DNA of 64,000 nt from a virus, in the IMG/VR virus record IMGVR_UViG_3300044994_000320, positions 23,212 through 87,211 of that record. One strand, written 5' to 3'. Under the pieces are notes generated by a model. It was not told where the DNA came from. It worked only from the letters and a program-made list of their open reading frames with translations, and ran no database searches. Shown piece by piece: positions 7,596 to 64,000 of this stretch. The position numbers were made by a program, and so were the translations under genes. How positions within the stretch are numbered: the stretch's first letter is position 1; every line of letters starts with the position of its first letter.

Positions 7596-8504
7596 ATGGC
7601 AGCAACCTTAATAGCTGATATACCAGACGCAGTTTTGCAGGTATATTCGCGAAAAGCGATTTTGAAGGCCATGCCACGTCTCGTTTTTGCTAACTTCGCT
7701 ACGCGCGAAGATCAGCTTGGCGAAGAAAGTGGTGAAAGGCTTAACTTTCTCAAGTACGATAACTTGACGAAAGGCGGTAAATTGGGGAACGAGACAACCC
7801 CAATCCCAAAAAGAAAATTGTCTGAAAGTCAGGTAAATATCACCGTTGACGAATACGGCAATGCAGTTCAAGTCTCACGTCGTGCTCTTCGCGCGTCTTT
7901 CCGTCGAATCATGGACGATATCGCAACCCTTCTGGGCCGCGACTACGCTTTGGTTTTAGACGAAATGATTCGCGATGCGTACCTCACTACGGCAAACAAG
8001 TTTTATGGTATTAAGTCAAATACTGCTACGAACCAGATTACTTCTGCCCACAAGCTGACGACTGCCAGTATCAAGGACGTGATCGAGCGCATGAAAACTT
8101 CGAACATTCCGCCAATGATCCGTGGCGGTGACCAGCATTTTGTTGGTATATTCCACCCAACGCAGCTTCGTTCGCTTCGAGACGACGCCGCATGGCTGTC
8201 TCCACACCAGTATGTAGATACCGCAGAGATTTACAATGGTGAAGTCGGTAAGTACGAAGGTGTTGTTTTCATCGAAACCACTCAAATCCCGGCCCTTGCA
8301 GGTGCAGGTTCGGGAGGTATCGACGTTTATCGCGGTCTTGTTTTCGGCGAAGACGCCGTAGGTTTTTCAGAACCCGTTCCATTCGAGCTCGTTGATGACG
8401 GTATCGAGGATTTTAAGCGCCTGCAGTCAATCGGTTGGTATTCAATCATGGGTGCCGGCATCATCAACGACCACGTTTTTGAACTGCAAACTGCAGGTTC
8501 GTAA
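7596..8504 (+). CDS. major capsid protein (N4-gp56-like, HK97 fold)
   Basis: Motifs VTVDEYGNAV, HPTQLRSLRDD, YNGEVGKYEGVVFIET, DFKRLQSIGWY; strong SD. Confidence 0.9.
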   Translation: MAATLIADIPDAVLQVYSRKAILKAMPRLVFANFATREDQLGEESGERLNFLKYDNLTKGGKLGNETTPIPKRKLSESQVNITVDEYGNAVQVSRRALRASFRRIMDDIATLLGRDYALVLDEMIRDAYLTTANKFYGIKSNTATNQITSAHKLTTASIKDVIERMKTSNIPPMIRGGDQHFVGIFHPTQLRSLRDDAAWLSPHQYVDTAEIYNGEVGKYEGVVFIETTQIPALAGAGSGGIDVYRGLVFGEDAVGFSEPVPFELVDDGIEDFKRLQSIGWYSIMGAGIINDHVFELQTAGS

Positions 8505-8518
8505 AAGGAAGGTAACAG

Positions 8519-8806
8519 ATGGCAACAGGTAATGACAAGTTTCCGGGATCAAAGGTACCGTACCATTTCACTGCGTTCGACACAGCGCTCGCCGCTGCTG
8601 GAACGATTGCAGTTACGCATGCCGCAGATCCAAACAAAGTGCGAAAAGTTACTGTTATTGATCAGGCAACTGGCAATATCGTCCCTTTTAGCACTCCAGC
8701 CGGTAACACCGCTCAATGCACATTTACCAGCAATACCGTAACCACAATCACGAATCGTACCGGCGGAACAGTAAACTGGCTCGTCGTAGTTACGGTTAAC
8801 CCGTAA
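8519..8806 (+). CDS. putative capsid decoration protein
   Basis: Small beta-rich Thr/Ala/Val protein directly after MCP. Confidence 0.5.
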   Translation: MATGNDKFPGSKVPYHFTAFDTALAAAGTIAVTHAADPNKVRKVTVIDQATGNIVPFSTPAGNTAQCTFTSNTVTTITNRTGGTVNWLVVVTVNP

Positions 8807-8815
8807 GGAGATTTT

Positions 8816-9292
8816 ATGGCAGCAGAAGAATTTCAAGAAGGTGACGAACCGGTTGATACCAGCTTTGATACACCCGATGAAGGCCAAGTGCTAGAATCAG
8901 AGTCAGATTCGGTTTCATCCGAGCCCCCTTCCCCTAAAAACGCTATCCAGGGTATGCGACCACTATCAAATGTTGGTCGCGGCCGTGCACAGGCAAAAGC
9001 AGAGACAGCCGGATTGAGCATCCCTATAGATGACGGCGAAATTATCGACGAAGAAGAAACGCGCGTCGATCCAGCGGAAGCAGCCGCCTCCGTTTTTGGC
9101 GAGCCGCGCAAAAAAGCTCACTTCGTTGTGGAATCCGATAGCGATTCTGAAAAATTCGTCGTTTGGGTAGATACCAACATTCGTTGCTGGATCGGCCCAA
9201 AACATCTAGAATTTAAGAAAGACCAGAAGTACCGTGTTTCTAAAAATGTGAAAGACGTGCTTCTCGCACGCGGCGCCCTAAAAGCCGTGTAA
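8816..9292 (+). CDS. hypothetical virion-associated protein
   Basis: Acidic disordered N-terminus, compact C-terminal domain; strong SD. Confidence 0.65.
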   Translation: MAAEEFQEGDEPVDTSFDTPDEGQVLESESDSVSSEPPSPKNAIQGMRPLSNVGRGRAQAKAETAGLSIPIDDGEIIDEEETRVDPAEAAASVFGEPRKKAHFVVESDSDSEKFVVWVDTNIRCWIGPKHLEFKKDQKYRVSKNVKDVLLARGALKAV

Positions 9293-9298
9293 ACCAGA

Positions 9299-9330
9299 AG
9301 GCGTCGAAGTAGCACTTCGACGCCTATTTA
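9299..9330 (+). terminator. intrinsic terminator-like hairpin closing the capsid operon
   Basis: 12-bp perfect stem AGGCGTCGAAGT/ACTTCGACGCCT, loop AGC, short ATTTA tail. Confidence 0.65.
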
Positions 9331-9340
9331 GAGGTACTAA

Positions 9341-11593
9341 ATGGCTTTAATAACAAGAGACACCTACAACCCAGAAAAAAATCGCGCTAAGGTTGTTATT
9401 CAAAAGGGAAAGCCAGGAATAGATGCCGAAATAAATGAAATGCAGGACATTTTGCGCGGCTACCTCAACAATTTCTACGATCTCCTATTTACCGGTTTTA
9501 GCGCTCTAGGTTTCCAGATACAAGAACACCCAACAGTTAAAGAGCAAAATTTTTTGATTAAGCTTGGTCGTTTTTACGGCAAACTCCCGCGATTAAACAG
9601 TATCGATACAAGCTATGTAAATCAGGCCGTAGACTATACGTTTCAAACAATTTCTCCAGTAATGCTCACTACTCCTGTCAGTAACAGGACAGACCTCGTC
9701 TATTTAGACGTTTGGCGCGAAGAAGTAAACTCTACAACAGACGTTTCGCAAATCGACACTTCTTTAGGTGCAGAAACGGCCGTTCGTGATGTAATTAAGT
9801 TTGCAGTTAAGGTTCTCGAAGGCTCTACGACATTACCAACGCCGGCCAGTGGTCACGAGCATCACGTGCTTGCGCATATAAATCGTCTTGCTGGGAACGC
9901 GCAAATTTTAGCGTCTATGATTGTCGATAAGCGAAACATCATCGCCAGTCTCGACGACACAATCAAAGCTCGAAGAGCCTACCCATTTAAGGTTTCAAGC
10001 GCGAAGGCGAATCTTCTTAACGATAATAAGGCATACGGCGTAAGTAATATGCTCTTAAACGGATGTGAGGGTGATCGAGAGTATTTTATTACAAAGATTT
10101 CTCGCAATGTTGGAGGCGCTTGGATTGTCGAAATTTCCGATACTGTTAGTCTAGTTGCGCGGTTTAGTTCTACGATTAACCCAGAAGGGAGTGAGTATTT
10201 CCAAGTATCCCCCGTTGGTATTTCAAATGTTCGCGGGTTTGGTCGTATAAAGTGGTCTGATATTCCAAATGGTGCTACGTACACTTTCGCTCAAGGCGAC
10301 TTGATTATTCTTGATCAAAACTGCTCTACTTCTACGCAGAATACCGGCCCCGGCGGTGCCGGTAGTGGAAATAAAGTCACCACGTATCGTTCAGGTCAAG
10401 CCCCTCTTTATGTCGATCCCAGTGACCCTACTGGTCGTCGTTGCCGCGTTTTTAGGCGCGATGTACAGCTTGTATCCGCTGATGGGTCATTACAGCAGCA
10501 CGTTGAACAAGAGCAAGAAAATCCAGTTTCGCGCGTTGATAATAAAGCTGAAGATATTTCAGATGTTTACATCTTGCAAAACGCGATGTCTGAACTTCCC
10601 GCAAACAAGATCCTCTTTACCCCCAACCCCGATGTACTATTCAGTGATCGACACCAACGTGTAGGTTTCTACGTAGCTGTAAAAGGTCTTGGCTATACCG
10701 GTATTCGCATAACTATTCATGATGACACTAATCAAGTTATCAGCACAGCCGATGTTCCAATCGGCAGCATCCCTAACGGGGATTGGATGTATGTCGACCT
10801 GCCGTGTATTTTAGAGTACGGTAGAACGTACCACTATCATTTCCACACTCTGAACTTTACCGTCGGTACATCCCCACGTTTTGGTGCTTCTTCGAGCGGT
10901 GTTATAGCTTTTCGTGAAATGTACAAGCCGTTTAGCGGAAAATTCGGAAGCCCCGACTGGGAAGACGTGGTTGTGCTATTTTCAGAGGCCGGTCTTTTGA
11001 TCCCCGCCCGTGTTTTGGGCGAAGATGTCGGCTATGCCAGCGGCCCCGGCGTTTTTGACGTTATGGCCGTCGATTTTAGTGATGACGCTAAATGGGCTGC
11101 GTGGGAGTACAATGACTATATCGGCGTTGATTTGCTTACAGGCCGCGTAAAATTTCCACCGTCTCTTAACCCGCTTAATTATGGCGTAAATTTCAATGCG
11201 CTTGAAAACTGGGAGCAGGCAGACGGAAAAAATACGCTTATGCACGGCGAAAGCCGCTCTGTTCAAGAGGAACTCGTCTTTTTACGTAATAGTTTGATCG
11301 TCGGAGCGCCTTACGGTTTTTCTGCAGTAGTTTCTGGCGGAACAGTGGCCCAACCCGCAGAAGTTGTTTTTCAGCGCACCCCAACAAGCGAACCCTACAA
11401 CCAAAATTTGCGCTGGAAAGCGGCCCTTTCTTGGACAAATACCCCCATCGTCGGCCTTTTAGCTTCTGTTGTTTACTCGAAGAGTTTCGATGGCGGCACT
11501 ACCTATACAGAGATAGGATCAGACGTCTATGCATACGATGGATCAGGTTATTTAGTTTCAGTATCTTCGTCCGACAAACAACGTATAACGTAA
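9341..11593 (+). CDS. tail fibre / baseplate-anchor protein with DUF6519-like N-terminus
   Basis: N-terminal RDTYNPEKN..VVIQKGKPGIDAEINEMQDI and RTDLVYLDVWREEV..ETAVR resemble DUF6519/DUF4815 anchors of contractile systems. Confidence 0.7.
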   Translation: MALITRDTYNPEKNRAKVVIQKGKPGIDAEINEMQDILRGYLNNFYDLLFTGFSALGFQIQEHPTVKEQNFLIKLGRFYGKLPRLNSIDTSYVNQAVDYTFQTISPVMLTTPVSNRTDLVYLDVWREEVNSTTDVSQIDTSLGAETAVRDVIKFAVKVLEGSTTLPTPASGHEHHVLAHINRLAGNAQILASMIVDKRNIIASLDDTIKARRAYPFKVSSAKANLLNDNKAYGVSNMLLNGCEGDREYFITKISRNVGGAWIVEISDTVSLVARFSSTINPEGSEYFQVSPVGISNVRGFGRIKWSDIPNGATYTFAQGDLIILDQNCSTSTQNTGPGGAGSGNKVTTYRSGQAPLYVDPSDPTGRRCRVFRRDVQLVSADGSLQQHVEQEQENPVSRVDNKAEDISDVYILQNAMSELPANKILFTPNPDVLFSDRHQRVGFYVAVKGLGYTGIRITIHDDTNQVISTADVPIGSIPNGDWMYVDLPCILEYGRTYHYHFHTLNFTVGTSPRFGASSSGVIAFREMYKPFSGKFGSPDWEDVVVLFSEAGLLIPARVLGEDVGYASGPGVFDVMAVDFSDDAKWAAWEYNDYIGVDLLTGRVKFPPSLNPLNYGVNFNALENWEQADGKNTLMHGESRSVQEELVFLRNSLIVGAPYGFSAVVSGGTVAQPAEVVFQRTPTSEPYNQNLRWKAALSWTNTPIVGLLASVVYSKSFDGGTTYTEIGSDVYAYDGSGYLVSVSSSDKQRIT

Positions 11594-11606
11594 GGAGCCT
11601 AAAAAA

Positions 11607-12188
11607 ATGTTTCTTTTTCAGCAAGCTCTTGCACGTCTTCGTGTAGAAAAAGTCGATAAGGTAAATAACATTGCCGAAACGATTACCGGGCAAAAAACTT
11701 TGTCTTTGTCGCCACTTATTGCAGTTGGCGGAGAGTCTTCTAATGCCCAAGCCGTACAAACGCGTTCACAAATTGTTGCTGTCGCTCAAGCCGAAGGAGC
11801 GGCTGCAGCTGCCGCAGTTATTAAGAATATTCCTACATGGACAGAAACTTTACAGGCTCCCTCCGCTCGTGCTGTAGAAGAGCGCGTTACCCCAGGTGTA
11901 ACGGTTGAAACCTATACCTCTGGCCCCCTCGTTTTGAATTTTTCTACTGGCTTTCCTGTGAAAGACGTTCAAGGCGCAAGTGTGGCTCCAGCCAATATAT
12001 CCATAGTTGGCGTAGCAGAAGGCGGTTCGTATGCGTTTAAGTTCATTTCAGACGTAAGTACCAGTTCAGAGTCACTCGGCTGCGTTTGGCCGAATGGTAC
12101 AAACCCGATATTTGTTGAAAGCAAAACGTATATGATAAACTTTATCGTAATCTCTGGAGTTAAGCACGCTGTATCCACTGCGTATTAA
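11607..12188 (+). CDS. putative tail fibre-associated protein
   Basis: ETITGQKT fibre-shaft motif; C-terminal WPNGTNP beta domain. Confidence 0.55.
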   Translation: MFLFQQALARLRVEKVDKVNNIAETITGQKTLSLSPLIAVGGESSNAQAVQTRSQIVAVAQAEGAAAAAAVIKNIPTWTETLQAPSARAVEERVTPGVTVETYTSGPLVLNFSTGFPVKDVQGASVAPANISIVGVAEGGSYAFKFISDVSTSSESLGCVWPNGTNPIFVESKTYMINFIVISGVKHAVSTAY

Positions 12189-12190
12189 AA

Positions 12191-13213
12191 ATGAAAGGTA
12201 TACACTACCCGATTACCCCGAGAACCGGTTTTTTCGGTGGAGGCTCAAGTTGGCCTAATGGCTCAGATGGCGACCTAAATATCACAACGCATGTTATAGT
12301 TACAACGTGGTCGGTTAAAGATTACAGGAACATCTATATCTCGCCAACCGGCATTTTAGAGATTCAGCAGAATGCGTTTTGGACTTTTATCGGTTGTACC
12401 GGGACGTTCGTAATCGATGGTATTTTGCGCGTTGTAAATACCGGTGCAGCAGGTACTATTTTAAGTAATACCCCAGGTCTTTCCGGCGCGCTCACAGGCC
12501 CCCCAATAAGTCACAACATTGTCCAAAAAAACGGAGGCAATGGTGGGTTTGGTAATAAAACAAGAAATACTTTGTTCGGCTGTTCGGAGTCCAACAGTTC
12601 TGGCGGCGCTCAAAACGCCGGCGGTGGCGGTGGCGGTGGCGGTGGCAATACTTGGCACGGCAGTTCCTGTTCAAACTACGTTGTAGGCAATAACGGCGCT
12701 CCCGGCGGCCCTAACGGTGAAGGTGGTTCAGGTGGTTCAGGCGGAAATTGGGCAAGCGTTGTCGGAGGCTCAGGTGGTTCTGGCGGCGCTTTATCTGGTG
12801 GAAACGGTGGCGGAGGTGGAGTAGGCAACGTCTCTGGTGCCAGTGGCCCTGGTGGAGGTGGAGGCGGTGCTCGAGGTTTTCACGGCGGGTGCCTTATGAT
12901 ACGTATGCGCTCAAGCAATCTTGTCATAAACGGTTCTATTCAAGCCAAAGGCTATCCCGGTGGTAACGGCGGTGCCGGAGCGAGCACAGGCGGTAATGCC
13001 GGCGGTGCCGGTGGTGGAGGTGGAGGCGCTGGAGGATCAGGTGGAAAAGTCTCCATTCTTACCCCATTCTCCGTAATAAATTTCGGAAATATAGACATTA
13101 GCGGAGGTCCCGGTGGAACAGGCGGCACACAAGGCGGCGCAGCAATTATAGGTTCCGCCGGAGATAACGGGCAAAATGGCAATCCTGGCGTTAAAGAGGT
13201 CATCGTTGGGTAA
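12191..13213 (+). CDS. glycine-rich virion protein
   Basis: GSDGDL N-terminal motif and long GG(G/N/A) runs with GGGGGGAGGSGG. Confidence 0.7.
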   Translation: MKGIHYPITPRTGFFGGGSSWPNGSDGDLNITTHVIVTTWSVKDYRNIYISPTGILEIQQNAFWTFIGCTGTFVIDGILRVVNTGAAGTILSNTPGLSGALTGPPISHNIVQKNGGNGGFGNKTRNTLFGCSESNSSGGAQNAGGGGGGGGGNTWHGSSCSNYVVGNNGAPGGPNGEGGSGGSGGNWASVVGGSGGSGGALSGGNGGGGGVGNVSGASGPGGGGGGARGFHGGCLMIRMRSSNLVINGSIQAKGYPGGNGGAGASTGGNAGGAGGGGGGAGGSGGKVSILTPFSVINFGNIDISGGPGGTGGTQGGAAIIGSAGDNGQNGNPGVKEVIVG

Positions 13214-54727: not shown

Positions 54728-55654
54728 GTGGGGCTGCAAGACTTAATGGACGAAATTTCTCTTACAGGTATCGCGGAGACGCAAAAAGAAAGGCAAACAA
54801 TCGTTAAGCCTCTAGAAGAATACCTGTGGCGACTTAACTTTAGTAAAGCTTATGAAGAGCAGCAGTATGGTGGCGTTGTCGAACGAGGCTTTCACCCATC
54901 AGGTCTTGTTAACTCCGAGTGCTGGCGCCAGCTCGCTCTGGAATTTTTAGAGTGCCCAAAGGTAGACGGAGAGTGGGAAATCCCACACCTCACCCGCCGC
55001 GTTTTTGATAACGGGCATAGCGTTCACGAACGTTTGCAGGGGTACTTACAAGGCATTTCAAAGATTCCAGAGCTAGGCGTCGTATTAAAGGGTACTTGGA
55101 AGTGCCGTAGCTGTGGTAAGTACCACGGCGATAATTCTACAGGCCCTATTGTTGAGCCTGAAGTTTGCGAGTGCTCGTGCAAGTCGTTTAAGTACAAAGA
55201 GTGGCGATTGCGTCACAAAGAATTGCGTATCACGGGTAAAACCGATGGTATTTTACAATTCGCCTTTGACAAAAGCCATGTACTTTTGGAAATCAAGAGC
55301 ATAAACACTTTTAGTTTCCAAAATTTGCGCGGAGTTTTAGATGAACACAAGGTGCAGATTAACTTGTACATGTGGTTATCAGGCATTCATCGAGCGCTTT
55401 TTATCTACGAAGATAAGAATAACCAACGTATTCAAGAGTATTCAGTCGATTTTGACTCTAATGTCATCGCGCCGATAATAAAGCAACTCGAAGAGGTAAA
55501 CGCTTTGCTCGATAAAGGACTACTTCCGGATGTGTTGCCAAATAAAAACGCGCAAAAAGCAAAAGATCGAAATAAAGTCTGTAAGCAGTGTGTTTTTAGG
55601 GATCACTGTGAGACTTTCGAAATTCCAGATTGGTTTAAGGAGACCTTAAAATGA
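54728..55654 (+). CDS. Cas4-like PD-(D/E)XK exonuclease
   Basis: HPS..C.R, G..VH, GKTDG..LEIKS, Q..LYM, C-terminal CKQC....HC (Fe-S staple pattern). Confidence 0.82.
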   Translation: MGLQDLMDEISLTGIAETQKERQTIVKPLEEYLWRLNFSKAYEEQQYGGVVERGFHPSGLVNSECWRQLALEFLECPKVDGEWEIPHLTRRVFDNGHSVHERLQGYLQGISKIPELGVVLKGTWKCRSCGKYHGDNSTGPIVEPEVCECSCKSFKYKEWRLRHKELRITGKTDGILQFAFDKSHVLLEIKSINTFSFQNLRGVLDEHKVQINLYMWLSGIHRALFIYEDKNNQRIQEYSVDFDSNVIAPIIKQLEEVNALLDKGLLPDVLPNKNAQKAKDRNKVCKQCVFRDHCETFEIPDWFKETLK

Positions 55655-56820
55655 AAAAAGAAACGCAAACAGAACTGAAAGTAAATCAGAAAACTACTCT
55701 TGTTGATGAAGCGCGGTTAAACGCCGCAAAAGAAAATTACCTACAGTTTTTTAAGGGCATAAAAGAATGCCTTATTGGAAGAGACATAGAGATCGCTGCA
55801 ATAGCCACCGCTATTTGCATGAAAGAGCATGTCCTGCTTAAAGGACCGCCTGGTGAAGCCAAGTCTATGGTTTCAAAGCTTGTGTTCGAGAATATCCAAG
55901 GAGCGACCATGTTCAAAGCACAGCTTAGCCGTTATACCTCAGAAGACTTACTTTTTGGCCCACCAGATTTTGAAGAAATTAAAAAAGGGCGCTTAGTAAG
56001 AAACATCCAAAACTCGATGCTTACTGCCAATTTTGTGTTCTTAGATGAAATCTTGAACGCTTCTTTGGAGCTTATCTGCTCTATGAATGAGGTGTTAAAC
56101 GAGCGGTCGTTTACACGTAACGCTCAGCAAGTATCTTGTCCTCTTGTAAGCGCCGTTATGACAACAAATGAGCGAAAAGAAAAGCATAGCGAGTATGCGG
56201 CATTCTATGACCGTGTTTTGTTTAACATAGAGGTCTCTCCGTTGAGCTACGAAGATATGGAGAAAGTCCTTTTAGGCGCTTACAGCAAAAATCCCCCCAA
56301 AATAGCTTTCGAGGATATTCAGCTTGTGGTAGAGAACTTCGACCCTTCGAGTATCACGCTCCCACCTATGTTCGTAAAAGACTTTATCGAGGTTATGCAA
56401 GATTTAGCTCGATGCATGGGTCGTACGTCATTTTCTACTCGTACCGCGCAGAAAATTATGACGCTTCTTAAATGCAGCGCATACATGAATATGCGTTCTC
56501 GTGTATCCGCTCAAGACCTCGATATTTTAGGTCTCTTGTCGGAAAAGCCAGAAGAAAAAGATCGCATAGAAGAGTTGTTTCGTGACATTAAAAAGAAAAC
56601 TTACTTTATCGACGACTCAAAAGTTCGTGCGGTTTTTGATAAGATAAAATCTAATTCATCGCAGTCTATCTCTGATAAATCAAAAATGCTTGGAAAACTG
56701 CAAATAGACGCCGCCAAAGCTGGATTTTCAAGTCTAAGTAAAGAAATCTTGGAGTACGAAAAAACGCTAACGGCGCAAGCTAAGAGTCTTGAAGACTTCA
56801 CTATCGGGAAAGGTCAATGA
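55651..56820 (+). CDS. MoxR/RavA-type AAA+ ATPase
   Basis: GPPGEAKS, LFGP, FLDEI, LNER.F, TNE, AFYDR. Confidence 0.88.
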   Translation: MKKETQTELKVNQKTTLVDEARLNAAKENYLQFFKGIKECLIGRDIEIAAIATAICMKEHVLLKGPPGEAKSMVSKLVFENIQGATMFKAQLSRYTSEDLLFGPPDFEEIKKGRLVRNIQNSMLTANFVFLDEILNASLELICSMNEVLNERSFTRNAQQVSCPLVSAVMTTNERKEKHSEYAAFYDRVLFNIEVSPLSYEDMEKVLLGAYSKNPPKIAFEDIQLVVENFDPSSITLPPMFVKDFIEVMQDLARCMGRTSFSTRTAQKIMTLLKCSAYMNMRSRVSAQDLDILGLLSEKPEEKDRIEELFRDIKKKTYFIDDSKVRAVFDKIKSNSSQSISDKSKMLGKLQIDAAKAGFSSLSKEILEYEKTLTAQAKSLEDFTIGKGQ

Positions 56821-57140
56821 CTGAAGCTAAGATAAAGGTACTCTATCAAGGTTCCTTACTTGAAAAGTACGTTGATGACGCCGAAAGCCTTTTTAATACT
56901 GCAGGTGTCGATTTTGCTTCTATAAAGGCTGTGCACTTCGGCGATATAGTGCCTCCGCCAGAGTATATACAAGCTCTTGGTCAAACAATCGACAACAAGA
57001 TTATCGTTCTTACGAAACTGGATAAAAAATGCGCGGTTTCGACCGTAAAGGTAGGAGCCGAAATCAAAAGGCTAAAATACGTTTTGTACATAGGCCCGAT
57101 GTTTTTTGCTGTTAACGAATTCAAACGGAGGATTCCATGA
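56817..57140 (+). CDS. hypothetical protein
   Basis: ATGA-coupled on both sides between AAA+ and VWA genes. Confidence 0.6.
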   Translation: MTEAKIKVLYQGSLLEKYVDDAESLFNTAGVDFASIKAVHFGDIVPPPEYIQALGQTIDNKIIVLTKLDKKCAVSTVKVGAEIKRLKYVLYIGPMFFAVNEFKRRIP

Positions 57141-58534
57141 AACTGTTTCCAACAAATTTCAGATTTGTGCGTATTGACCTTCCACAAGAAATGGAAGATT
57201 TGATACAGAGTATTTATGAGGCCCTTTCGCCAGAAGTTCGCGGAATGGTCAGTTCGTTTTATTTTAGCGATATGGTTTCAGCGCAATTTTTAGGCGAACG
57301 AGTAAAGAACTATCTTGCAACGATAAACGAATTGCGTATTGAAGCGTCAAACCAAGGCGTTCTTAATTACAAAGACGCAGTAGAGCTTTTTATTGAGTAT
57401 CGTCGATCCATTCTCGAATATGTTCAGTGCAATATGTATTATGCTATTCAGATGGCTCCCGGCACAGCTTTAGAGCTTACAGAAGTCGTGTGTTTTTTTC
57501 TTGCCGGAATGCTCGAAGGCTTAGCCAATTCAAATACGCCGCCAGTTCCTGTTCCTGGGCAGAGCACTTCTGTCCCTGGGCCGCAGGTTTCCAGAAACAG
57601 CAAAAGTTCTGTTGATTATACGGCTTCGGCTCTAGCTGCGTGGAGAGACATCCCATCGCTTTTCGATTTGCTTAGTAGCTATTCCGGCATAAGGCAAAAG
57701 AACACTGGTAATGCTACAGGTGCGAGTAGAAGTAATGCTCGAACTTTTACGAGAAAGCAGCTTATCCGCGAAATCGAAGAACGCATGGTAGATATAAGCA
57801 GTAAGGTGTACCAAGTTGGCAGCCTGTTCGATATTGCCAGGTCAATCCAAGCGTCTCTTGATTTAGCTCTCGGAGGAGCGACAGAGGAGTCTCACGTTGT
57901 CTCAACCGATGTGGATTTTAGGAAAATCCAATCGTTGAGTGAACTACCGAATCAAGTTATCGAATACCCAGAAGAAATGGCGGATTCTTTGGCGCTATCT
58001 AAGAATCTACGTGTGCAAAAGTATGCCCGTCGTGTAAAAGGTAAAATCTCTGCGGCGATAGCTTTCGATGTTTCAGGGTCTATTAACGATCGCAGAGAGA
58101 CCCTCATAAAAGGTTGTGTTATGGCTTACGGGCAGCGTGTTGCAAAAGAAGGCGGCGTTCTGGATATTGCGTATTTTCACGATTGGGTTTCTGACTACTT
58201 GCATGTAACCGACGACAGAACTTGGTCTGCAAGTTTGAAAGAGATTTTTGAAATCGAAACAGATGAAGGTACCGACATCGACCGCGCCGTGGCGTCCATT
58301 GCTGAGAGAATCACGATGCAAGGTCTAGATCACGGTATCCTGATAACCGACGGCACACAGGATATGGTCGATACTTCTCGTGTCCCGCAGTCGGCTTGGG
58401 ATAAGATTACCGTTATCTGCCTCGATAGTATGCTACCAAATTTACGTGAAAAGGCGGCAAAGTATTTTAGAGTCGATAGCATGAACATTTCGGCTCATAA
58501 CTTTGCGTCAATCTTCTACGAAATAGAAAAGTGA
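57137..58534 (+). CDS. VWA domain protein (ViaA-like)
   Basis: MIDAS DVSGS, GTDI, ITDG. Confidence 0.85.
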   Translation: MKLFPTNFRFVRIDLPQEMEDLIQSIYEALSPEVRGMVSSFYFSDMVSAQFLGERVKNYLATINELRIEASNQGVLNYKDAVELFIEYRRSILEYVQCNMYYAIQMAPGTALELTEVVCFFLAGMLEGLANSNTPPVPVPGQSTSVPGPQVSRNSKSSVDYTASALAAWRDIPSLFDLLSSYSGIRQKNTGNATGASRSNARTFTRKQLIREIEERMVDISSKVYQVGSLFDIARSIQASLDLALGGATEESHVVSTDVDFRKIQSLSELPNQVIEYPEEMADSLALSKNLRVQKYARRVKGKISAAIAFDVSGSINDRRETLIKGCVMAYGQRVAKEGGVLDIAYFHDWVSDYLHVTDDRTWSASLKEIFEIETDEGTDIDRAVASIAERITMQGLDHGILITDGTQDMVDTSRVPQSAWDKITVICLDSMLPNLREKAAKYFRVDSMNISAHNFASIFYEIEK

Positions 58535-58540
58535 GGAACA

Positions 58541-59077
58541 ATGGACATTAAAAAAGAAATCGCAGAATGGGAGCTACTTGATTCAGAAATCGAAAAAGAA
58601 ATGGCCGAAATCGGCCTTCCAAAAATAAGAAAACCAAAGAACGAAGAATTCCCTGAGTTTCCGCCAGATATATCCACCCTTACCGGGCATGATATTACAA
58701 GGTTAATGGGTGAGTATTCTGCTTGGGCCGGGTATGTGCGCCCATTGCTGGCAAAAGTTCTTGCAAGAAAAGGCATCGAAGAGAATCTACGCGAGAAAGT
58801 CTATTCCCGCGTAGTCATGGAAAATCGCGCAAAAGAAGAAAAAGTTTCTGACGCCAAGTCTGCCGCAGAGGTTGACAGCCACATCATGGCCCTCGATAAG
58901 AAGATTGCAAAAGATGAAGCAAAAGCCACGCATCTACGAGAGCTTCTTACCACGTTGGACAGCTACGTTAAAACGCTTTCTCGGCAGCTTACTCTTTTAG
59001 CTATGGATGAAGATTCCGAAGGAAAGGGGGATCGTCGTGTTATCGGTAAATCCAAAGGAGACATTTATGCAGGTTAG
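58541..59077 (+). CDS. coiled-coil protein (possible UvsY-like mediator)
   Basis: Helical, charged, LSRQLT near C-terminus; function inferred only. Confidence 0.35.
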   Translation: MDIKKEIAEWELLDSEIEKEMAEIGLPKIRKPKNEEFPEFPPDISTLTGHDITRLMGEYSAWAGYVRPLLAKVLARKGIEENLREKVYSRVVMENRAKEEKVSDAKSAAEVDSHIMALDKKIAKDEAKATHLRELLTTLDSYVKTLSRQLTLLAMDEDSEGKGDRRVIGKSKGDIYAG

Positions 59078-59765
59078 TTCAGACATCCCTGTTCACGAGA
59101 TATTCCCTACAGTACAAGGAGAGGGTAGATATTTGGGCTACCCCGCCGTGTTTATTCGACTTCAAGGGTGCAACTACGGGCTAAAAATTTGTCCGTGGTG
59201 TGACCAGGCCGATTCCACAATTATGTCCAAGAGAGCAGAAAGGCTTATGTCTCCAGAAGACGTTTTTCGGCGTGTAGTAGAAGCTGCAGATGCTATCAAG
59301 GCAAAGCTTGTCGTTCTCACTGGTGGAGAGCCTACCGCGTTTAAGTATTGGGAACCCCTAATCCAAGGTCTTATGGGGTTAGGTAAGTTTGAGCGCTGTG
59401 TCGTAGAAACTAACGGCTCTACAAAAGAAATCTTGATTCCGCGCTATTTACACGATGTGACCTTCTCCATCGCCCCAAAAATAGCTACATGGCGTCCAGA
59501 CATCTATAAAGATGTCGATTCTTACTTAAAGCTTACAGTTGGCCCAGATTCTTTAGAGATCAATGATAACGCAATAAGTCAATTCCTTGCTTTACGTAAA
59601 GACGTTCAGGTCTATATACAGCCTTGCGATATGTCCTCAGTTACAGGAAGTGCCAAGTTTACTTACGCCGAGTCTTACGCGTATTTTCTAGAGCTGTGCG
59701 AGAGATACCCAAAAGCTGACTTGCGTATGGGTATTCAAGCGCATAAAGTGTGGGGTGTCAGATGA
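59067..59765 (+). CDS. queE: 7-carboxy-7-deazaguanine synthase (radical SAM)
   Basis: EIF.TVQGEG..G.PAVFIRL.GCN..CPWCD, TGGEP, VETNGS, QP, Q.HK; start moved to ATG 59067 (AAGGAG SD). Confidence 0.92.
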   Translation: MQVSSDIPVHEIFPTVQGEGRYLGYPAVFIRLQGCNYGLKICPWCDQADSTIMSKRAERLMSPEDVFRRVVEAADAIKAKLVVLTGGEPTAFKYWEPLIQGLMGLGKFERCVVETNGSTKEILIPRYLHDVTFSIAPKIATWRPDIYKDVDSYLKLTVGPDSLEINDNAISQFLALRKDVQVYIQPCDMSSVTGSAKFTYAESYAYFLELCERYPKADLRMGIQAHKVWGVR

Positions 59766-60028
59766 TAGAAAACCCAGAAAAAATTCGCGCGATTGTAAAT
59801 GCCACAATGGCTGTAGCGACTACAGGTGGCGTCGCCTCTAACCTTTTAGGTAACGCGCTTCGAATGGACAACACTAAGATCACGGATGATATTGAAAAAC
59901 AGCTAGCCGCTCGCGCGGGTCATTGTATCTTAACGGCTAATGCCTTGCTCGCCCTTTTAGGAGTGAGTCAGCAAGAAGCTATCTCTGCCGCAGAAAAAGA
60001 AATCGCCAATTCGGGTAGTTTGAAATGA
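59762..60028 (+). CDS. hypothetical protein
   Basis: ATGA overlap with queE stop. Confidence 0.55.
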   Translation: MIENPEKIRAIVNATMAVATTGGVASNLLGNALRMDNTKITDDIEKQLAARAGHCILTANALLALLGVSQQEAISAAEKEIANSGSLK

Positions 60029-60231
60029 AGCTCTATACTTTCACTGAATTGGTTAAGCATTTGTACTATGGTGGAGCTATCGCAGAAAACGGTTGGCCGA
60101 AAGAAAAGTTCATAAAGATGCACAGGCAGACCTCGCGTTTAATTCTCTACAACGGTAATTTGCGGTCAGAGACAAAAATAGCAGACGAAGATCGCCTAAA
60201 AAAGAAGTGGGTTATCAGTAATGGAAAATGA
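60025..60231 (+). CDS. hypothetical protein
   Basis: Coupled small ORF. Confidence 0.5.
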   Translation: MKLYTFTELVKHLYYGGAIAENGWPKEKFIKMHRQTSRLILYNGNLRSETKIADEDRLKKKWVISNGK

Positions 60232-60394
60232 ACATATGAGCTTTATAGACAATATTGACGCGCTTCGTTTATTTATCGTGTTAGTTGTCTTTTACCTCAT
60301 TGCGTATAGCCGAGAAAAGCGTTGGGCTTCTCAAGTTTACGCGTGGATTCGCACAGGAGTCGCAAATTCATGGAAAAAACTAAAGAAAAAGTGA
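60221..60394 (+). CDS. small TM protein (not in ORF track)
   Basis: 57 aa with LFIVLVVFYLIAY; fills the gap between neighbours. Confidence 0.4.
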   Translation: MENEHMSFIDNIDALRLFIVLVVFYLIAYSREKRWASQVYAWIRTGVANSWKKLKKK

Positions 60395-60906
60395 CAGCAA
60401 TCCGACGGCGAGTCGAGGCGACTCTACTGTATGCCTTAGCAAAGGCTATGTCAAAAGTCAGTGTGTTCTTTACTGAGCAGCGCAAAAAGCGCGGAAAGTA
60501 TAAGCCTTCAGAGATCATCCAGCTTGCTCACGGCTTAATTTCAGAAAAAGAAAAAACGTGTAGAAGGTATCGCCTTATAGGTATAAAACCTGTACCACAG
60601 AAAATAAATGCGATAAAAGTTCGCTACCAGGTGCAGTACCACTTTTCCGGTTCCAACGCGGTTACCCGAGAAGAAGAGTTTGTTTTAGACGGCCCTATCT
60701 GGCCTATGGACTTTTCTGACGATGTTGACTTTTTGAACTTTATGGCTGGAAAACCTTACGGTAAAAAAAGGGAAAAAGCGCAAAAGCTTTACGATAAAGC
60801 TGTGTTCAATGCAGCCAAGCAAATTCAGCGAGATCCGACAAAAAAGGTCTTGATAAGGTCTCCAGAAGGAAAACTACTCCAGTTATACAGCGCTAAAAAA
60901 GATTGA
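60370..60906 (+). CDS. basic hypothetical protein
   Basis: Start moved to ATG 60370 (AGGAG upstream). Confidence 0.55.
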   Translation: MEKTKEKVTAIRRRVEATLLYALAKAMSKVSVFFTEQRKKRGKYKPSEIIQLAHGLISEKEKTCRRYRLIGIKPVPQKINAIKVRYQVQYHFSGSNAVTREEEFVLDGPIWPMDFSDDVDFLNFMAGKPYGKKREKAQKLYDKAVFNAAKQIQRDPTKKVLIRSPEGKLLQLYSAKKD

Positions 60907-60974
60907 CGTATGCATTGTAACTCTGATTAAAGCGCACAAACGTAGCCTACTACGTGATTTGAAAGGAGACTTGC

Positions 60975-61538
60975 ATGATTGTCTTGGGGCTCGATTCCGG
61001 CGGTCGCTATAACGGCTTAGCTGTTGGCGACTTGGTTAAAAAAAGCATAAATCGCGCAGAGCTTTTTATGCAACCATTTACAAAACCATCTCCCGATAAG
61101 TTAATCCAAGTTGTAGAATTTGCTACAAGTTGGGTCACAAAATTTAAGCCCGCGTGCGTCGTAGCAGAAAACTACGCATTTGGTGGTATGAATTTTAATC
61201 GTGAAGTGCCAGAAGTTTTTGGTGTTTACAAGATGGTTTTTCATAAGTGCCGCGTGCCCTTGATACTTGTTCCACCGTCAAGCGCAAAGAAAGCAGTCAC
61301 CGGTTCAGGTAGAGCGACTAAAGCAGAAGTTCAGAAAGCCGCAAAAGAGTTCATCGTTAAAAATAAGGTCGATGTTGTTATTGAGGCTTTACCTCGTGAG
61401 CTTCAATCTCATCCGTATGATGCGCTTTCACTTCTTGTAGCTTTGGTTCGAGCAGACAAAGAGTCGCCTATACGCAGAGACTTGCGAATAGTAGGAGAAT
61501 TTTACGGGATCAATCTTTTAGGAGCACTGTATGAGTGA
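60975..61538 (+). CDS. ruvC: RuvC-like Holliday junction resolvase
   Basis: VLGLDSG, VAE, P...KKAVTGSGRATKAEV, DAL. Confidence 0.85.
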   Translation: MIVLGLDSGGRYNGLAVGDLVKKSINRAELFMQPFTKPSPDKLIQVVEFATSWVTKFKPACVVAENYAFGGMNFNREVPEVFGVYKMVFHKCRVPLILVPPSSAKKAVTGSGRATKAEVQKAAKEFIVKNKVDVVIEALPRELQSHPYDALSLLVALVRADKESPIRRDLRIVGEFYGINLLGALYE

Positions 61539-61830
61539 AGCCCCAACAGGTACAAGCAGTAGTATAGAATTGAAAGTCGCTGCTTCCAATAATGTTCAAA
61601 AAACTGCTACTGCTATTGTTAAAAATATCCAAGAAGGAAAACAAGTAAGCGTTTCAGCAGTAGGCCCAGAAGCTGTTAATCAAGCAGTCAAAAGTGTGGC
61701 CGCAGCACGAGGTAAAATTGCTTCAAACGGTGTGAACCTTCTGGCGCAAATCGGCTTTCGTACTTTCAAACAAGACGAAAGTGACGCACGAGAAAAAACA
61801 GCGATGATTTTCAAACTGCTTATACAGTAA
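61531..61830 (+). CDS. spoVS: stage V sporulation protein S-like protein
   Basis: LKVA..SN....A.AI...AVG..AVNQAVK.VA.ARG..G..F..E.TA..F matches SpoVS. Confidence 0.85.
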   Translation: MSEAPTGTSSSIELKVAASNNVQKTATAIVKNIQEGKQVSVSAVGPEAVNQAVKSVAAARGKIASNGVNLLAQIGFRTFKQDESDAREKTAMIFKLLIQ

Positions 61831-62429
61831 TGCCTAAAGCTCAAAAGCCTAAGATACCGGGCGTCGATTTTAGGCGCCTTCCAGTTTTAGAAAAACTGTA
61901 CGCGCAGTTTATGACAGAGTTAGGGATAGACCTTAAAGACCCTAACTGTTCAGATACTCCAAAACGTGTGTCCAAGATGTTTCTTGAAGAGTTTACTCCA
62001 GCGTTGTTCAGTCAGCCAGAAGGTATCGTAACCGCTTTTCCAAACGAAAAAAACGTCTATGATCAGTACCTTGCTGTTGGCAACATACCTTTTTACTCGA
62101 TCTGCGCTCACCATCACGTCACGTTTTTCGGCACAGCAAATATCGTGTACCATCCAAAAGATAAGTTGTTAGGACTGAGCAAATTCTCGCGAATTGTGAA
62201 CCATTATTGCAAAAAGCCTCAGATACAAGAAAACCTCACGGCTGAAATTTTAGATGCGGTTGTACGGGCTACAGACCCACACGGCGTTTACGTCAATTTA
62301 GTAGGAAGGCACTTCTGCATGGAATCTAGAGGTGTTCGGTCACACGGGGCCCATACGGTTACGTCAAAAATTTACGGCGAAATCGACAAGAATGAAGCCA
62401 TAAAATTGTTAAGGGAGTATCAACGATGA
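61830..62429 (+). CDS. folE: GTP cyclohydrolase I
   Basis: DTPKRV, FYSICAHH, LGLSKF.R, PQIQE.LT, HFCM..RGV. Confidence 0.95.
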   Translation: MPKAQKPKIPGVDFRRLPVLEKLYAQFMTELGIDLKDPNCSDTPKRVSKMFLEEFTPALFSQPEGIVTAFPNEKNVYDQYLAVGNIPFYSICAHHHVTFFGTANIVYHPKDKLLGLSKFSRIVNHYCKKPQIQENLTAEILDAVVRATDPHGVYVNLVGRHFCMESRGVRSHGAHTVTSKIYGEIDKNEAIKLLREYQR

Positions 62430-62851
62430 TAAAACTGTTGAAAGATAAAAAGAAATCAAAAGTGCGGGAGCGTCTCGACAAAAAAGTGCGTAGATTTATC
62501 GAATTCAAGTTGCAGTTCCCCAAGGTGCACTGGTTCCCCAAAGCCGAAGGAATTTTCGCGTATTTGAAAAGCCCTCATCGTCACCTATTCCACGTTCATG
62601 TGCGAGTCGAGGTATTTGAAGCCGATAGAGAAATCGAATTTTTAGAGCTTCAAAGAATTACCGCTAACTATATCGGTAGTTCAAAGTGGATAGAGCCGAG
62701 TGAAGATTCCTGCGAGCATATTGCAGAGTACATTCACGGTTTTCTATCCGGCTACCTTGGTAAGTTATCCCCTAATGGTCCGGTTCGCGGTATTTCAGTT
62801 CGCGTACTGGAAGACAACGAAAACGGCGCGGAGTTTCAATCAGACTTATGA
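62426..62851 (+). CDS. queD: phage-type QueD-like 6-carboxytetrahydropterin synthase
   Basis: T-fold His ligands H.FP..HRHLF, IEF, SCE, EDNENGA; coupled to folE. Confidence 0.65.
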   Translation: MIKLLKDKKKSKVRERLDKKVRRFIEFKLQFPKVHWFPKAEGIFAYLKSPHRHLFHVHVRVEVFEADREIEFLELQRITANYIGSSKWIEPSEDSCEHIAEYIHGFLSGYLGKLSPNGPVRGISVRVLEDNENGAEFQSDL

Positions 62852-63660
62852 GCTACATAAAAAGTTATTGTAAGTACCCGCATATCACCGCCGCGTATTG
62901 TACTTATGCAAATCCTCAGAATGTCGGCGCTATCATAGGGTCGATGCACTCCCTTATTCACGAGGGTATTTCAAAGTTTGTTATAGTGGATAATGGCTCG
63001 AACTGCACAATGTACACGTTCTCAAATTTTGTTGAGTATTTGGATTTGATCAAAGAGCATTTTGGTGTAGAAGTCGAGTACATTCGTGTTACCGGTAAAA
63101 CCCTTTGGGAATACCGAGCCATTGCGTACAACGCTGTAAAGACCGAGAAAATTTTGATTATTGACGATGATATGTTCGCTATGCCTAAAGCAGTTAGCGC
63201 GCTGGATAGTGCACTTCTCGATCAAGGCTTTGTCTCCGCCACAGTTTCACAAGAAGGAGGAATAGGGCTAAAAAATCGCGATTTTAGCGAGACCTTCGAT
63301 ATTGGGCTTATAGCTACGGGCTTCTACAAAGAAGACCTCATAATCGAAGGTATAAAGATCGTCGGGCCACCTATTCTGACCTTTGCAAAGTATTTGCAGT
63401 CAAAGGATTTCAGCGATTTTATGTCTGACATTAAAAAACGTATTACTGATGCGGGGTTTGATCTTTCAAAGGTTGGTGGTGAAGACTCTGCAGTGTCTTT
63501 TTTTCTCGCGACATATTGTGGTAAAAGAGACGGCTCTGTAGTTACCGGTTCAAGGTTCATCCATAACGGTGCAAAGTCTCCGTACATGAAATGGTACGAC
63601 GGCGGAGACATCTTGCCGTTTATTTTTAAGACGTATCCAGAAAACAACAGGAGAAAATAA
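62848..63660 (+). CDS. glycosyltransferase, GT2/GT-A fold
   Basis: VIVDNGS, ILIIDDD (DxD), GGED. Confidence 0.75.
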   Translation: MSYIKSYCKYPHITAAYCTYANPQNVGAIIGSMHSLIHEGISKFVIVDNGSNCTMYTFSNFVEYLDLIKEHFGVEVEYIRVTGKTLWEYRAIAYNAVKTEKILIIDDDMFAMPKAVSALDSALLDQGFVSATVSQEGGIGLKNRDFSETFDIGLIATGFYKEDLIIEGIKIVGPPILTFAKYLQSKDFSDFMSDIKKRITDAGFDLSKVGGEDSAVSFFLATYCGKRDGSVVTGSRFIHNGAKSPYMKWYDGGDILPFIFKTYPENNRRK

Positions 63661-64000
63661 ATGAAAAATCTGATAGTAGTCGCGCACCCGGATGACGAAA
63701 GCTTCTTCTTCGGCGGGAGAATGCTGCAGTCGCCCGAGCAAACATTCGATGTTTTAGTAATCACTGACGGAGGCCATCACGACGGGGAAACAAAGCAAAA
63801 TCCCGGCAAGCGCCTCGAACGGTTATACGCAGCCGCAAAAAAATTCGGCTTTCGAGTTATTCCTAACCCTAACGCGCTCCCTGACTACTACTCCAAACGC
63901 CTCGACTTCGACGCCATCGTATCCCTGATAGAACCCCTCGCAGTCGGTAGTCATTACGACCGGGTCTATACGCACAGCCCTATTGGTGACGAAGGCAGGC
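63661..64000 (+). CDS. PIG-L/LmbE family deacetylase (3'-truncated by window end; not in ORF track)
   Basis: Own translation: MKNLIVVAHPDDESFFFGG...ITDG...VYTHSPIGDEGR; AGGAG SD. Confidence 0.85.
   Translation, partial: MKNLIVVAHPDDESFFFGGRMLQSPEQTFDVLVITDGGHHDGETKQNPGKRLERLYAAAKKFGFRVIPNPNALPDYYSKRLDFDAIVSLIEPLAVGSHYDRVYTHSPIGDEGR

Follow-up and report, generated by a model that had tools for sequence, protein, structure and literature searches.

Does a phage that encodes the enzymes of 7-deazaguanine synthesis side by side with sugar-handling enzymes build a glycan onto the guanine positions of its own DNA? This question is raised by the far end of the stretch analysed here, 64,000 nucleotides from an uncultured phage (henceforth referred to as the window), which corresponds to positions 23212-87211 of the 87,211-bp IMG/VR virus record IMGVR_UViG_3300044994_000320 and ends where the contig ends. 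The deazaguanine marks known from phages are small (dPreQ0, dADG, dG+, dPreQ1 together with methyl and formyl forms, 2'-deoxy-7-deazaguanosine (dDG) as well as 2'-deoxy-7-carboxy-7-deazaguanosine (dCDG)) and, to our knowledge, the known glycans of DNA sit on hydroxymethylpyrimidines. An earlier interpretation made from the letters of the window alone (henceforth referred to as the sequence-only reading) noted a queE, a folE, a queD-like gene, a glycosyltransferase (GT) gene of family 2 (GT2) and a PIG-L deacetylase gene, and proposed that the phage places an amino sugar, such as glucosamine, on a deazaguanine or another base. The open reading frame (ORF) list and profile matches place all five genes where that reading had put them, on the + strand; its observation is confirmed and its interpretation is partly supported. 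The answer that we favour, with confidence a little above even, is that the gene block modifies the phage's own DNA at guanine, yielding a glycan-bearing 7-deazaguanine with a deacetylated, N-methylated amino sugar. As judged by sequence comparison, the evidence from other phages attaches to a 345-aa GT of the GT-B fold that lies outside the window, and not to the GT2/PIG-L pair.

The gene block continues across the contig end. Contig positions 1-187 repeat positions 87025-87211 (window 63814-64000) with a single mismatch (T/C at position 60), so that the assembly closes on itself and the PIG-L frame, cut by the window edge, runs on into C1:1-1035 (C1 denotes contig coordinates past the window edge and is the same as L003 coordinates). 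The record is probably a complete genome, either circularly closing or terminally redundant; IMG/VR classes it as linear and CheckV gives a completeness of 80%, despite the 187-nt end repeat. The sequence-only reading had stated that neither dpdA nor queC lies within the window, which holds, and had recommended reading downstream: a dpdA is found 4.7 kb beyond the end of the PIG-L frame (C1:4753-6153) and a queD after it, but neither queC nor sugar-nucleotide genes occur in the record. From folE onwards the directly observed gene order is FolE, DpdL, GT-A, PIG-L/NodS-like fusion, GT-B, GT-B, GT-A, GT-B, DpdA, small ORF and QueD (DpdL being the 'queD-like' gene, see below); all genes of 59007-64000, three small ORFs among them, and all downstream cluster genes are on the + strand. 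The stop and start codons that the sequence-only reading had described are exact (ATGA overlaps at 62426-62429 and 62848-62851, and TAA at 63658-63660 directly before ATG 63661), whereas its queE start at 59067 is an internal ATG of a real queE that begins at 59007. In addition, a TAATG overlap at 61828-61832 couples a SpoVS-like gene to folE. From the SpoVS-like gene to dpdA, 11 consecutive + strand genes are separated by gaps of 0 or overlap by 1-28 nt (with GTG 2014 as the p361 start), and their GC content (0.41-0.47 per cluster gene) is in line with that of the genome (0.442). Promoter-like and terminator-like sites were no more frequent than in shuffled sequences. Overall, these results support the view that the deazaguanine and sugar genes form a single tightly packed block ending in a DpdA.

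The base-forming part of this block is of a known type. The 141-aa product of the 'queD-like' gene is indeed a T-fold deazaguanine protein, but it is not a QueD: it matches the PTPS family only at E 0.021 and phrog_17812 at E 2.4e-12, and the true queD, in which the CxxxHGH motif can be read in the sequence, lies past the window edge (Table 1). Cui et al. 2023 described DpdL as a QueD-like T-fold protein in which LxxxHRHxF replaces CxxxHGH, found it in phages with DpdA, FolE, QueD and QueE and without QueC, proposed that it decarboxylates 7-carboxy-7-deazaguanine (CDG) to 7-deazaguanine and predicted that it acts on the free base (PMC10516641). The 141-aa protein carries LxxxHRHxF, with L47, H51, H53 and F55 invariant across an alignment that includes CGPG_00067 of Cellulophaga phage phiST and gp125 of phage ACP17, and by tblastn it matches the DpdL of ACP17 (37% identity, E 2e-6) and that of phiST (E 5e-3). 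By these sequence criteria it is a DpdL, and it follows that the base pathway would be the phiST-type branch from CDG to 7-deazaguanine and not the preQ0/ADG branch; the deazaguanine module as a whole belongs to the known DpdL (phiST) type. Searched at E<=10, the 87-kb record gave no hit to the QueC family (PF06508), in a search whose control matched 14/14 genomes.

The DpdA-type transglycosylase, on whose presence in the genome the sequence-only reading depended, is the 466-aa protein that closes the packed block. It matches phrog_887 ('queuine tRNA-ribosyltransferase', E 1.8e-40) across residues 1-464 and, over its full length, DpdA-like proteins of Streptomyces phages (24% identity); the Pfam TGT family (PF01702) has no match in the whole record, this protein included. 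At HMMER sensitivity it differs from the DpdA3 type of phiST. Its barrel is followed by an acidic linker, a segment rich in Cys and a helical tail; this extension is a trait of the family, because the whole length aligns with the Streptomyces phage proteins and with the nearest relative discussed below (locus L107). A partial match in Bacteroides phage BS162P1 was set aside as uninformative, nearly all genes of that phage being annotated as hypothetical.

It could be argued that DpdL is not a decarboxylase in phages that also carry the GT, so that the base in DNA would be CDG or another derivative, and the GT would form a glycosyl ester or use a handle made by DpdL. The decarboxylation is a proposal, no dDG was obtained in E. 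coli with dpdL plus dpdA of either ACP17 or phiST (its authors concede that further enzymes may be required), and dCDG exists in viral DNA (PMC10516641); moreover, the strict pairing of GT and DpdL described below suggests that the product of one is the substrate of the other. Against this, phiST has a DpdL and its DNA contains dDG (PMC10516641), and the DpdL motif residues are the same in GT-bearing and GT-less phages in our alignment, that is, invariant between the two groups. We hold this alternative to be very improbable and continue with 7-deazaguanine as the base.

The strongest link between base and sugar runs through the 345-aa GT-B, henceforth referred to as the core GT, whose gene adjoins dpdA by an ATGA overlap. 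Three sets of invariant family columns, EPxExRY (N-terminal), PHRxxxEKxP (central) and QE...E (C-terminal), are all present in it, and ACP17 gp124, encoded directly upstream of the DpdL gene gp125, matches it at E 7e-37 by tblastn. A tblastn survey of 50,697 GenBank phage records detected the core GT in 23 records, DpdL in 29 and both in 18: ACP17 (two records), PA5oct-like phages (11, PA5oct itself carrying both), Phosso, X1, BUDD, BCSR5 and BUCT-ZZ01. The GT without DpdL appeared as five weaker matches (PhiXhv-12/15/16, Ep026 and Ep032), and DpdL without the GT in 11 records (five Cellulophaga phage records including phiST, Bakedbeans, RHph_I1_18, D479, Ahp1, Roos and MA9V-3). In Acidovorax phage ACP17, Pseudomonas phage PA5oct, Sinorhizobium phage Phosso and Synechococcus phage BUCT-ZZ01 the GT is adjacent to DpdL or within ~3 kb of it, in variable order. 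In IMG/VR, a profile built on five members of the family matched 443 loci. The best 80 were kept and searched for partner genes within 10 kb, and DpdL was present in 73/80; shared descent inflates this figure, since all 80 loci are top-scoring relatives of a single query and are not independent. FolE was found in 63/80, QueE in 53/80 and QueD in 20/80, and FolE-DpdL-GT-DpdA was the most frequent order. DpdA was detected in 34/80 by single-sequence phmmer and in 70/80 by a hidden Markov model (HMM), the latter count being partly circular because the HMM was built from matches in those same 80 loci. For counts on whole records and for the PolA comparison below we hand-picked 50 of the 80 loci, leaving out short or duplicate contigs; without L112, which dropped out, 49 records remained. 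QueC was found in 0/49 of these GT-bearing records and in 0/16 of those that are >=90% complete.

The core GT family is large (7,886/8,000 scored candidates at E<=0.001) and virus-specific in the ESM Atlas, with only 7 contigs of metagenome-assembled genomes among 185,579 species genomes; the GT-bearing phages and their hosts are very diverse, and include a T4-like cyanophage, a jumbo Pseudomonas phage and a 469-kb rhizobiophage. Overall, sequence comparison supports the core GT as a member of the module in the majority of DpdL-bearing phages without QueC. The pairing with DpdL rather than with QueC would fit attachment at the position freed by decarboxylation (C7); speculatively, the sugar would be joined to C7 or to a position beside it, on the major-groove side, perhaps as a C-glycoside. 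Membership of the core GT in the QTMAN/GTDC1 family, which a putative likeness in C-terminal motifs would favour, was considered and rejected: at E<=10 the record holds no match to QTMAN_N (PF12038), the domain that precedes the GT1 C-domain in that family, and among PDB sequences the GT and its profile matched generic GT1/GT4 proteins only (E>=0.014) and no QTMAN chain. As a separate observation, dpdL and the core GT are separated in 37/80 of the best IMG/VR loci (e.g. L050:8622-9995) by an ORF of ~420-470 aa from a family to which we assign no function; its examples ACP17 gp123 and BUCT-ZZ01 UTS52034 match phrog_10773, and the family is absent from the present phage.

The phage of the window departs from this common arrangement in that five genes stand between dpdL and the core GT: two GT-A genes, two paralogous GT-B genes and the PIG-L/methyltransferase fusion. 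The DpdL-type module is known, and this embedded multi-enzyme glycan-building set is the new part. The first of the five, which the sequence-only reading called GT2, encodes a 270-aa protein with no Pfam match at E<=0.01 and a weak match to TIGR04440 (E 0.0046). Its structural neighbours in the ESM Atlas are all GT2/GT-A clusters (template modelling (TM) score 0.61-0.69, feature score 0.96-0.97), and a DDD run can be read at the position expected for the DxD motif; a single-sequence AlphaFold2 (AF2) model reached a predicted local distance difference test (pLDDT) score of 38 and was not used. It has no relative in a pattern scan of IMG/VR, and a word-index search of 5.8 billion proteins returned only itself. 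Its assignment as a lineage-specific, GT2-like GT-A enzyme, which leans on these structural neighbours, is tentative. The database gene caller starts this gene at residue 33 (238 aa), in which case the gene would lose its ATGA coupling at 62848; we prefer the long start, on which that coupling depends, because the first strand-helix-strand of the GT-A fold is formed by residues 12-50, a preference which is a reading of the sequence rather than a test.

The second inserted gene encodes the fusion, an uninterrupted 395-aa protein that is also present in a representative library (P0016). In an alignment of 17 homologues its AHPDDE and HWHH columns are conserved, and Pfam recognizes PIG-L in 16/17, Methyltransf_23 in 5/17 and NodS in 4/17 of them. 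The AF2 model built on this 17-sequence alignment has a pLDDT of 89.7, and its best Foldseek match is NodS (3ofk, E 2.5e-8, TM 0.66 on target), which covers the C-terminal half, followed by the PIG-L enzymes MshB (1q74), diacetylchitobiose deacetylase (8bgo/4xm1), BshB (6p2t), LnmX and Orf2*; the first three are top matches to the N-terminal half. According to this model the protein is a PIG-L deacetylase fused to a predicted NodS-like methyltransferase, and it follows that N-methylation of the predicted amino sugar is more likely than the free glucosamine of the sequence-only reading, which had correctly placed a deacetylase inside the module. The remaining inserted genes encode the second GT-A and the two GT-B paralogues, GT334 and p361, which share 26% identity (E 2e-19).

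The nearest relative of the phage, record G046 (locus L107), has a PolA with 43% identity and a DpdA that aligns over its full length (E 7e-46). Its folE-dpdA interval holds an Epimerase, DpdL, a Methyltransf_24 protein, the core GT, a PIG-L protein, an NTP_transf_3 protein, a second GT-B and a Glyphos_transf protein, from which it appears that this lineage keeps sugar-tailoring genes inside the module and varies which ones. The SpoVS-like protein of the window also has its counterpart there (L107:4734-5042, 42% identity, E 3e-16), just upstream of queD, and, going by this sequence similarity, its gene is perhaps a conserved but unexplained partner that accompanies the deazaguanine genes of the lineage.

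These comparisons bear on a different explanation, in which the DNA carries plain dDG or dCDG, as in phiST, and the sugar genes serve virion proteins, host surface glycans or a cell-wall/teichoic-acid step, the block being a site that tolerates insertions. phiST makes dDG without any GT, the Glyphos_transf of L107 is a teichoic-acid type enzyme, the 270-aa GT is an orphan, and elsewhere, in viral and metagenome loci, relatives of the PIG-L and GT2 proteins lie apart from deazaguanine genes. In marked contrast, the core GT is tied to DpdL (73/80) and DpdA (70/80) and recurs with DpdL in unrelated cultured phages of differing gene order; the inserted genes are confined to the interval from dpdL to the core GT, where stop and start codons overlap; and L107 has a different sugar-gene set in the same interval. 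On balance we regard service to another target as rather unlikely. The claim of the sequence-only reading that the deazaguanine and sugar genes are one system thus stands as far as the packed block goes, but the linkage runs through the core GT instead of GT2/PIG-L, and the neighbourhood survey that it had called for bears this out: the 270-aa GT has no relative, a PIG-L gene occurs in 1/49 related records, and a different GT accompanies DpdL.

Table 1. Features of the gene block and of the DNA just upstream of folE. Plain coordinates are window positions; C1 coordinates are contig positions past the window edge.
Feature	Position	Strand	Matches and remarks
queE, 7-carboxy-7-deazaguanine synthase, radical SAM	59007..59765	+	PF04055 (1.9e-10); phrog_2076, QueE-like (3.4e-25); best NCBIfam match TIGR03365 (9.7e-20, under its curated cut-off)
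RuvC-like resolvase	60975..61538	+	Between queE and folE; PF02075 (4.8e-07)
SpoVS-like small protein	61531..61830	+	PF04232 (5.2e-18)
folE, GTP cyclohydrolase I	61830..62429	+	PF01227 (5.1e-48)
dpdL, T-fold protein, proposed CDG decarboxylase, 141 aa	62426..62851	+	
Putative GT-A (GT2-like) glycosyltransferase, 270 aa, lineage-specific	62848..63660	+	
PIG-L deacetylase/predicted NodS-like methyltransferase fusion, 395 aa	63661..64000 (5' part); rest C1:1-1035	+	PF02585 (2.7e-09 on the window part, 3.1e-10 on the full fusion)
GT-B-like, 334 aa (GT334)	C1:1026-2030	+	Weak GT4/GT1 matches
GT-B (p361), paralogue of GT334	C1:2014-3045	+	GTG 2014 start with AAGGAGG site
GT-A (GT2)	C1:3018-3722	+	PF00535 (5.6e-06)
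Core GT-B, 345 aa	C1:3719-4756	+	Weak GT4/GT1 matches
dpdA, 466 aa	C1:4753-6153	+	phrog_887 (1.8e-40)
Small ORF, 115 aa	C1:6165-6512	+	
queD, two-domain	C1:6539-7372	+	PF01242, PTPS (1.2e-14)

If the glycan is on DNA, a base other than deazaguanine might have carried it, as the sequence-only reading had allowed. At E<=1, profiles of the thymidylate-synthase family (PF00303), TET/JBP (PF12851) and C5-methyltransferases (PF00145) matched nothing anywhere in the record, and 20 proteins of the replication module comprise only ligase, helicases, primase, PolA, RecA and similar proteins, with no domain of a 5-hydroxymethylpyrimidine enzyme. By these searches the genome has no 5-hydroxymethylpyrimidine route that would provide an alternative handle; that DNA is the target is itself something we infer, as are the atom of attachment, the identity of the donor sugars and the sequence in which the steps occur.

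Taken together, the enzymes suggest the following course. FolE, QueD and QueE would convert GTP to CDG by the chemistry established for these families, and DpdL would decarboxylate CDG to 7-deazaguanine, as proposed by Cui et al. 2023. The DpdA-type transglycosylase, to go by its family, would exchange guanine in DNA for the deazapurine, and the core GT would then add the first sugar to the deazaguanine, probably after its insertion into DNA. The two GT-A and two GT-B enzymes may extend this sugar to a short glycan from host nucleotide sugars, and the fusion would de-N-acetylate and then N-methylate at least one N-acetylhexosamine. This would leave a bulky mark, cationic in part, which blocks restriction along with other defences directed at DNA.

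The order of the last steps could also be reversed, with the GTs acting on the free deazapurine or its nucleotide to give either a soluble glycoside resembling the nucleoside antibiotic huimycin or a glycosylated precursor that DpdA or a polymerase places in DNA. There is precedent in HuiG, which puts N-acetylglucosamine (GlcNAc) on N2 of a free 7-deazapurine (PMC7439116), and DpdL itself is predicted to act on the free base; in BUCT-ZZ01 (ON615601.1, L040), moreover, the DpdL/GT block includes an annotated xanthine-guanine phosphoribosyltransferase gene, flanked by queE and queD (locus positions 2084-2545), which hints at nucleotide-level handling of the deazapurine in some phages. However, the DpdA pocket would need to accept a base with a sugar or a whole glycan, stepwise multi-sugar chains are known from phages on DNA-bound 5-hydroxymethylcytosine (5hmC) (10.1101/2023.12.21.572611), and a secreted antibiotic is of no evident use to a lytic phage. 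We consider transfer to the free base or its nucleotide improbable, and return to glycosylation within DNA as the preferred course.

Beside the shared descent and the circularity that temper the survey counts, several points weigh against a glycan on deazaguanine in this phage. The product is predicted from genes alone, here and in every GT-bearing relative. 7-Deazaguanine offers no obvious hydroxyl handle, which leaves the attachment atom (N2, C7 or another) to guesswork, and since phiST replaces guanine by plain dDG without a GT, the GT is not needed for base exchange. The genome has no sugar-nucleotide genes (Epimerase, NTP-transferase), so host nucleotide sugars would have to be the donors. 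The C-terminal half of the fusion has no significant methyltransferase match of its own in Pfam (CheR, E 0.16), and in both GT-B paralogues the conserved QET...E motif has other residues in place of some of its acidic ones, as seen in the alignment and by reading the sequences. The five inserted genes lack comparative support: apart from the orphan 270-aa GT, the one related record of 49 with a PIG-L gene is L107, the nearest relative and thus not an independent case. An alignment scan of IMG/VR found 28 viral PIG-L loci that match the deacetylase half only and lie away from deazaguanine genes (tblastn with 11 cluster proteins found none of these proteins there), and 80 metagenome PIG-L loci likewise lie away from such genes.

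Two of the loci reached by these searches were considered as further deazaguanine-DNA loci and rejected. L129 (Ga0182027_10002783, positions 8103-12494) holds the only full fusion among the 80 metagenome loci, preceded by genes for a FemAB-like GNAT (PF13480) and an R2K ATP-grasp protein and with two radical SAM genes nearby; it is perhaps an unrelated cluster for the tailoring of amino sugars or peptides. L130 has FolE and PTPS, among the housekeeping genes Sua5, TerC and pseudouridine synthase. A scan of IMG/VR with the tail of the fusion, as a single protein, gave one weak locus (L006).

What would be expected of the virion DNA can be put in two parts. Tentatively, and with less than even confidence, we predict that it contains a 7-deazaguanine bearing an oligosaccharide of up to ~5 residues that include an N-methylated hexosamine, and that a simpler one-sugar form is widespread. 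The one-sugar form would include the cultured phages PA5oct and ACP17, the core GT family extending to at least 443 IMG/VR loci and thousands of metagenome proteins; the core prediction is testable now on such cultured phages. The DNA of PA5oct is restriction-resistant, which has been read as a modified guanine of undetermined structure (10.1101/2025.03.31.646159). The sequence-only reading did not recognize its proposed mark as described, and this agrees with our literature search, which did not cover the supplementary data of Cui et al. 2023 and returned no paper describing a sugar-linked deazaguanine in DNA; the main text of Cui et al. 2023 contains no word starting with 'glycosyl' or 'sugar' (PMC10516641).

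If the prediction is true, a glycan on a deazapurine joins two known classes of mark into a new class of DNA base, and no DNA would have been described before with a glycan on a purine-type base. It would offer a candidate identity for the modified guanine of PA5oct-like jumbo phages, a group that attracts interest for phage therapy, and might explain why dpdL and dpdA alone fail to produce dDG in E. coli. The enzymes would be new tools for labelling guanine positions in DNA, and the mark a new class of target for modification-dependent defences. The differing tailoring genes of the present phage and of L107 would suggest an arms-race diversification of the glycan, as for O-antigens.

Some features of the sequence lie outside this argument. 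Four hot-spring or microbial-mat DNA assemblies carry the sequence and are maybe its source, and no RNA dataset is among them. The RuvC-like resolvase between queE and folE probably stands outside the deazaguanine pathway. Upstream of queE, window positions 55651-58534 encode a MoxR-type AAA+ ATPase (PF20030 bpMoxR, 4.6e-35; AAA_5), followed by a 107-aa ORF and a 465-aa protein without Pfam match, and look like a phage MoxR and partner pair.

Among known systems, Cellulophaga phage phiST is the closest for the base: it shares FolE, QueD, QueE, a DpdL with LxxxHRHxF, a DpdA-family enzyme, the absence of QueC and the proximity of folE and dpdL (PMC10516641). Unlike the present phage, which has six sugar-handling genes between dpdL and dpdA, phiST has no GT and contains plain dDG, and its DpdA3 (259 aa) is missed by the HMM of the DpdA type found here. 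For a sugar on the deazapurine ring, the natural products huimycin and dapiramicin come nearest, with a GT of the Glyco_transf_4 kind in a FolE/QueD/QueE cluster (PMC7439116; 10.64898/2026.04.15.718813). In huimycin the 2-amino group of a 7-deazapurine receives GlcNAc from the GT HuiG (PMC7439116), from which it follows that N-glycosylation of this ring occurs in nature; these are, however, free secondary metabolites of actinomycetes, made with QueC and O-methylation and without DpdA, and HuiG was compared by description only. The deacetylation of GlcNAc followed by modification of the free amine, as in NodB/NodS, MshB and BshB, resembles what the two halves of the fusion are predicted to do, in keeping with their fold matches, with the difference that here both predicted activities reside in one 395-aa protein. 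NodB belongs to a deacetylase family different from PIG-L. GTs that act on a 7-deazaguanine derivative in nucleic acid are known from animal tRNA, where QTMAN/GTDC1 and QTGAL place sugars on the cyclopentenediol of queuosine, a group that the present pathway, in contrast, cannot make. Finally, the alpha- and beta-glucosyltransferases of phage T4 act post-replicatively on 5hmC in DNA. Pyle et al. describe phage GT-A and GT-B enzymes clustered with base-modifying enzymes that build mono- to trisaccharides of hexose, N-acetylhexosamine or heptose from host nucleotide sugars, in an abstract that mentions no PIG-L/NodS-type tailoring (10.1101/2023.12.21.572611). The block described here shares with these systems the clustering of phage-encoded GT-A and GT-B genes with base-modifying genes; whereas the acceptor there is the hydroxymethyl group of a pyrimidine, the acceptor predicted here is a purine analogue.

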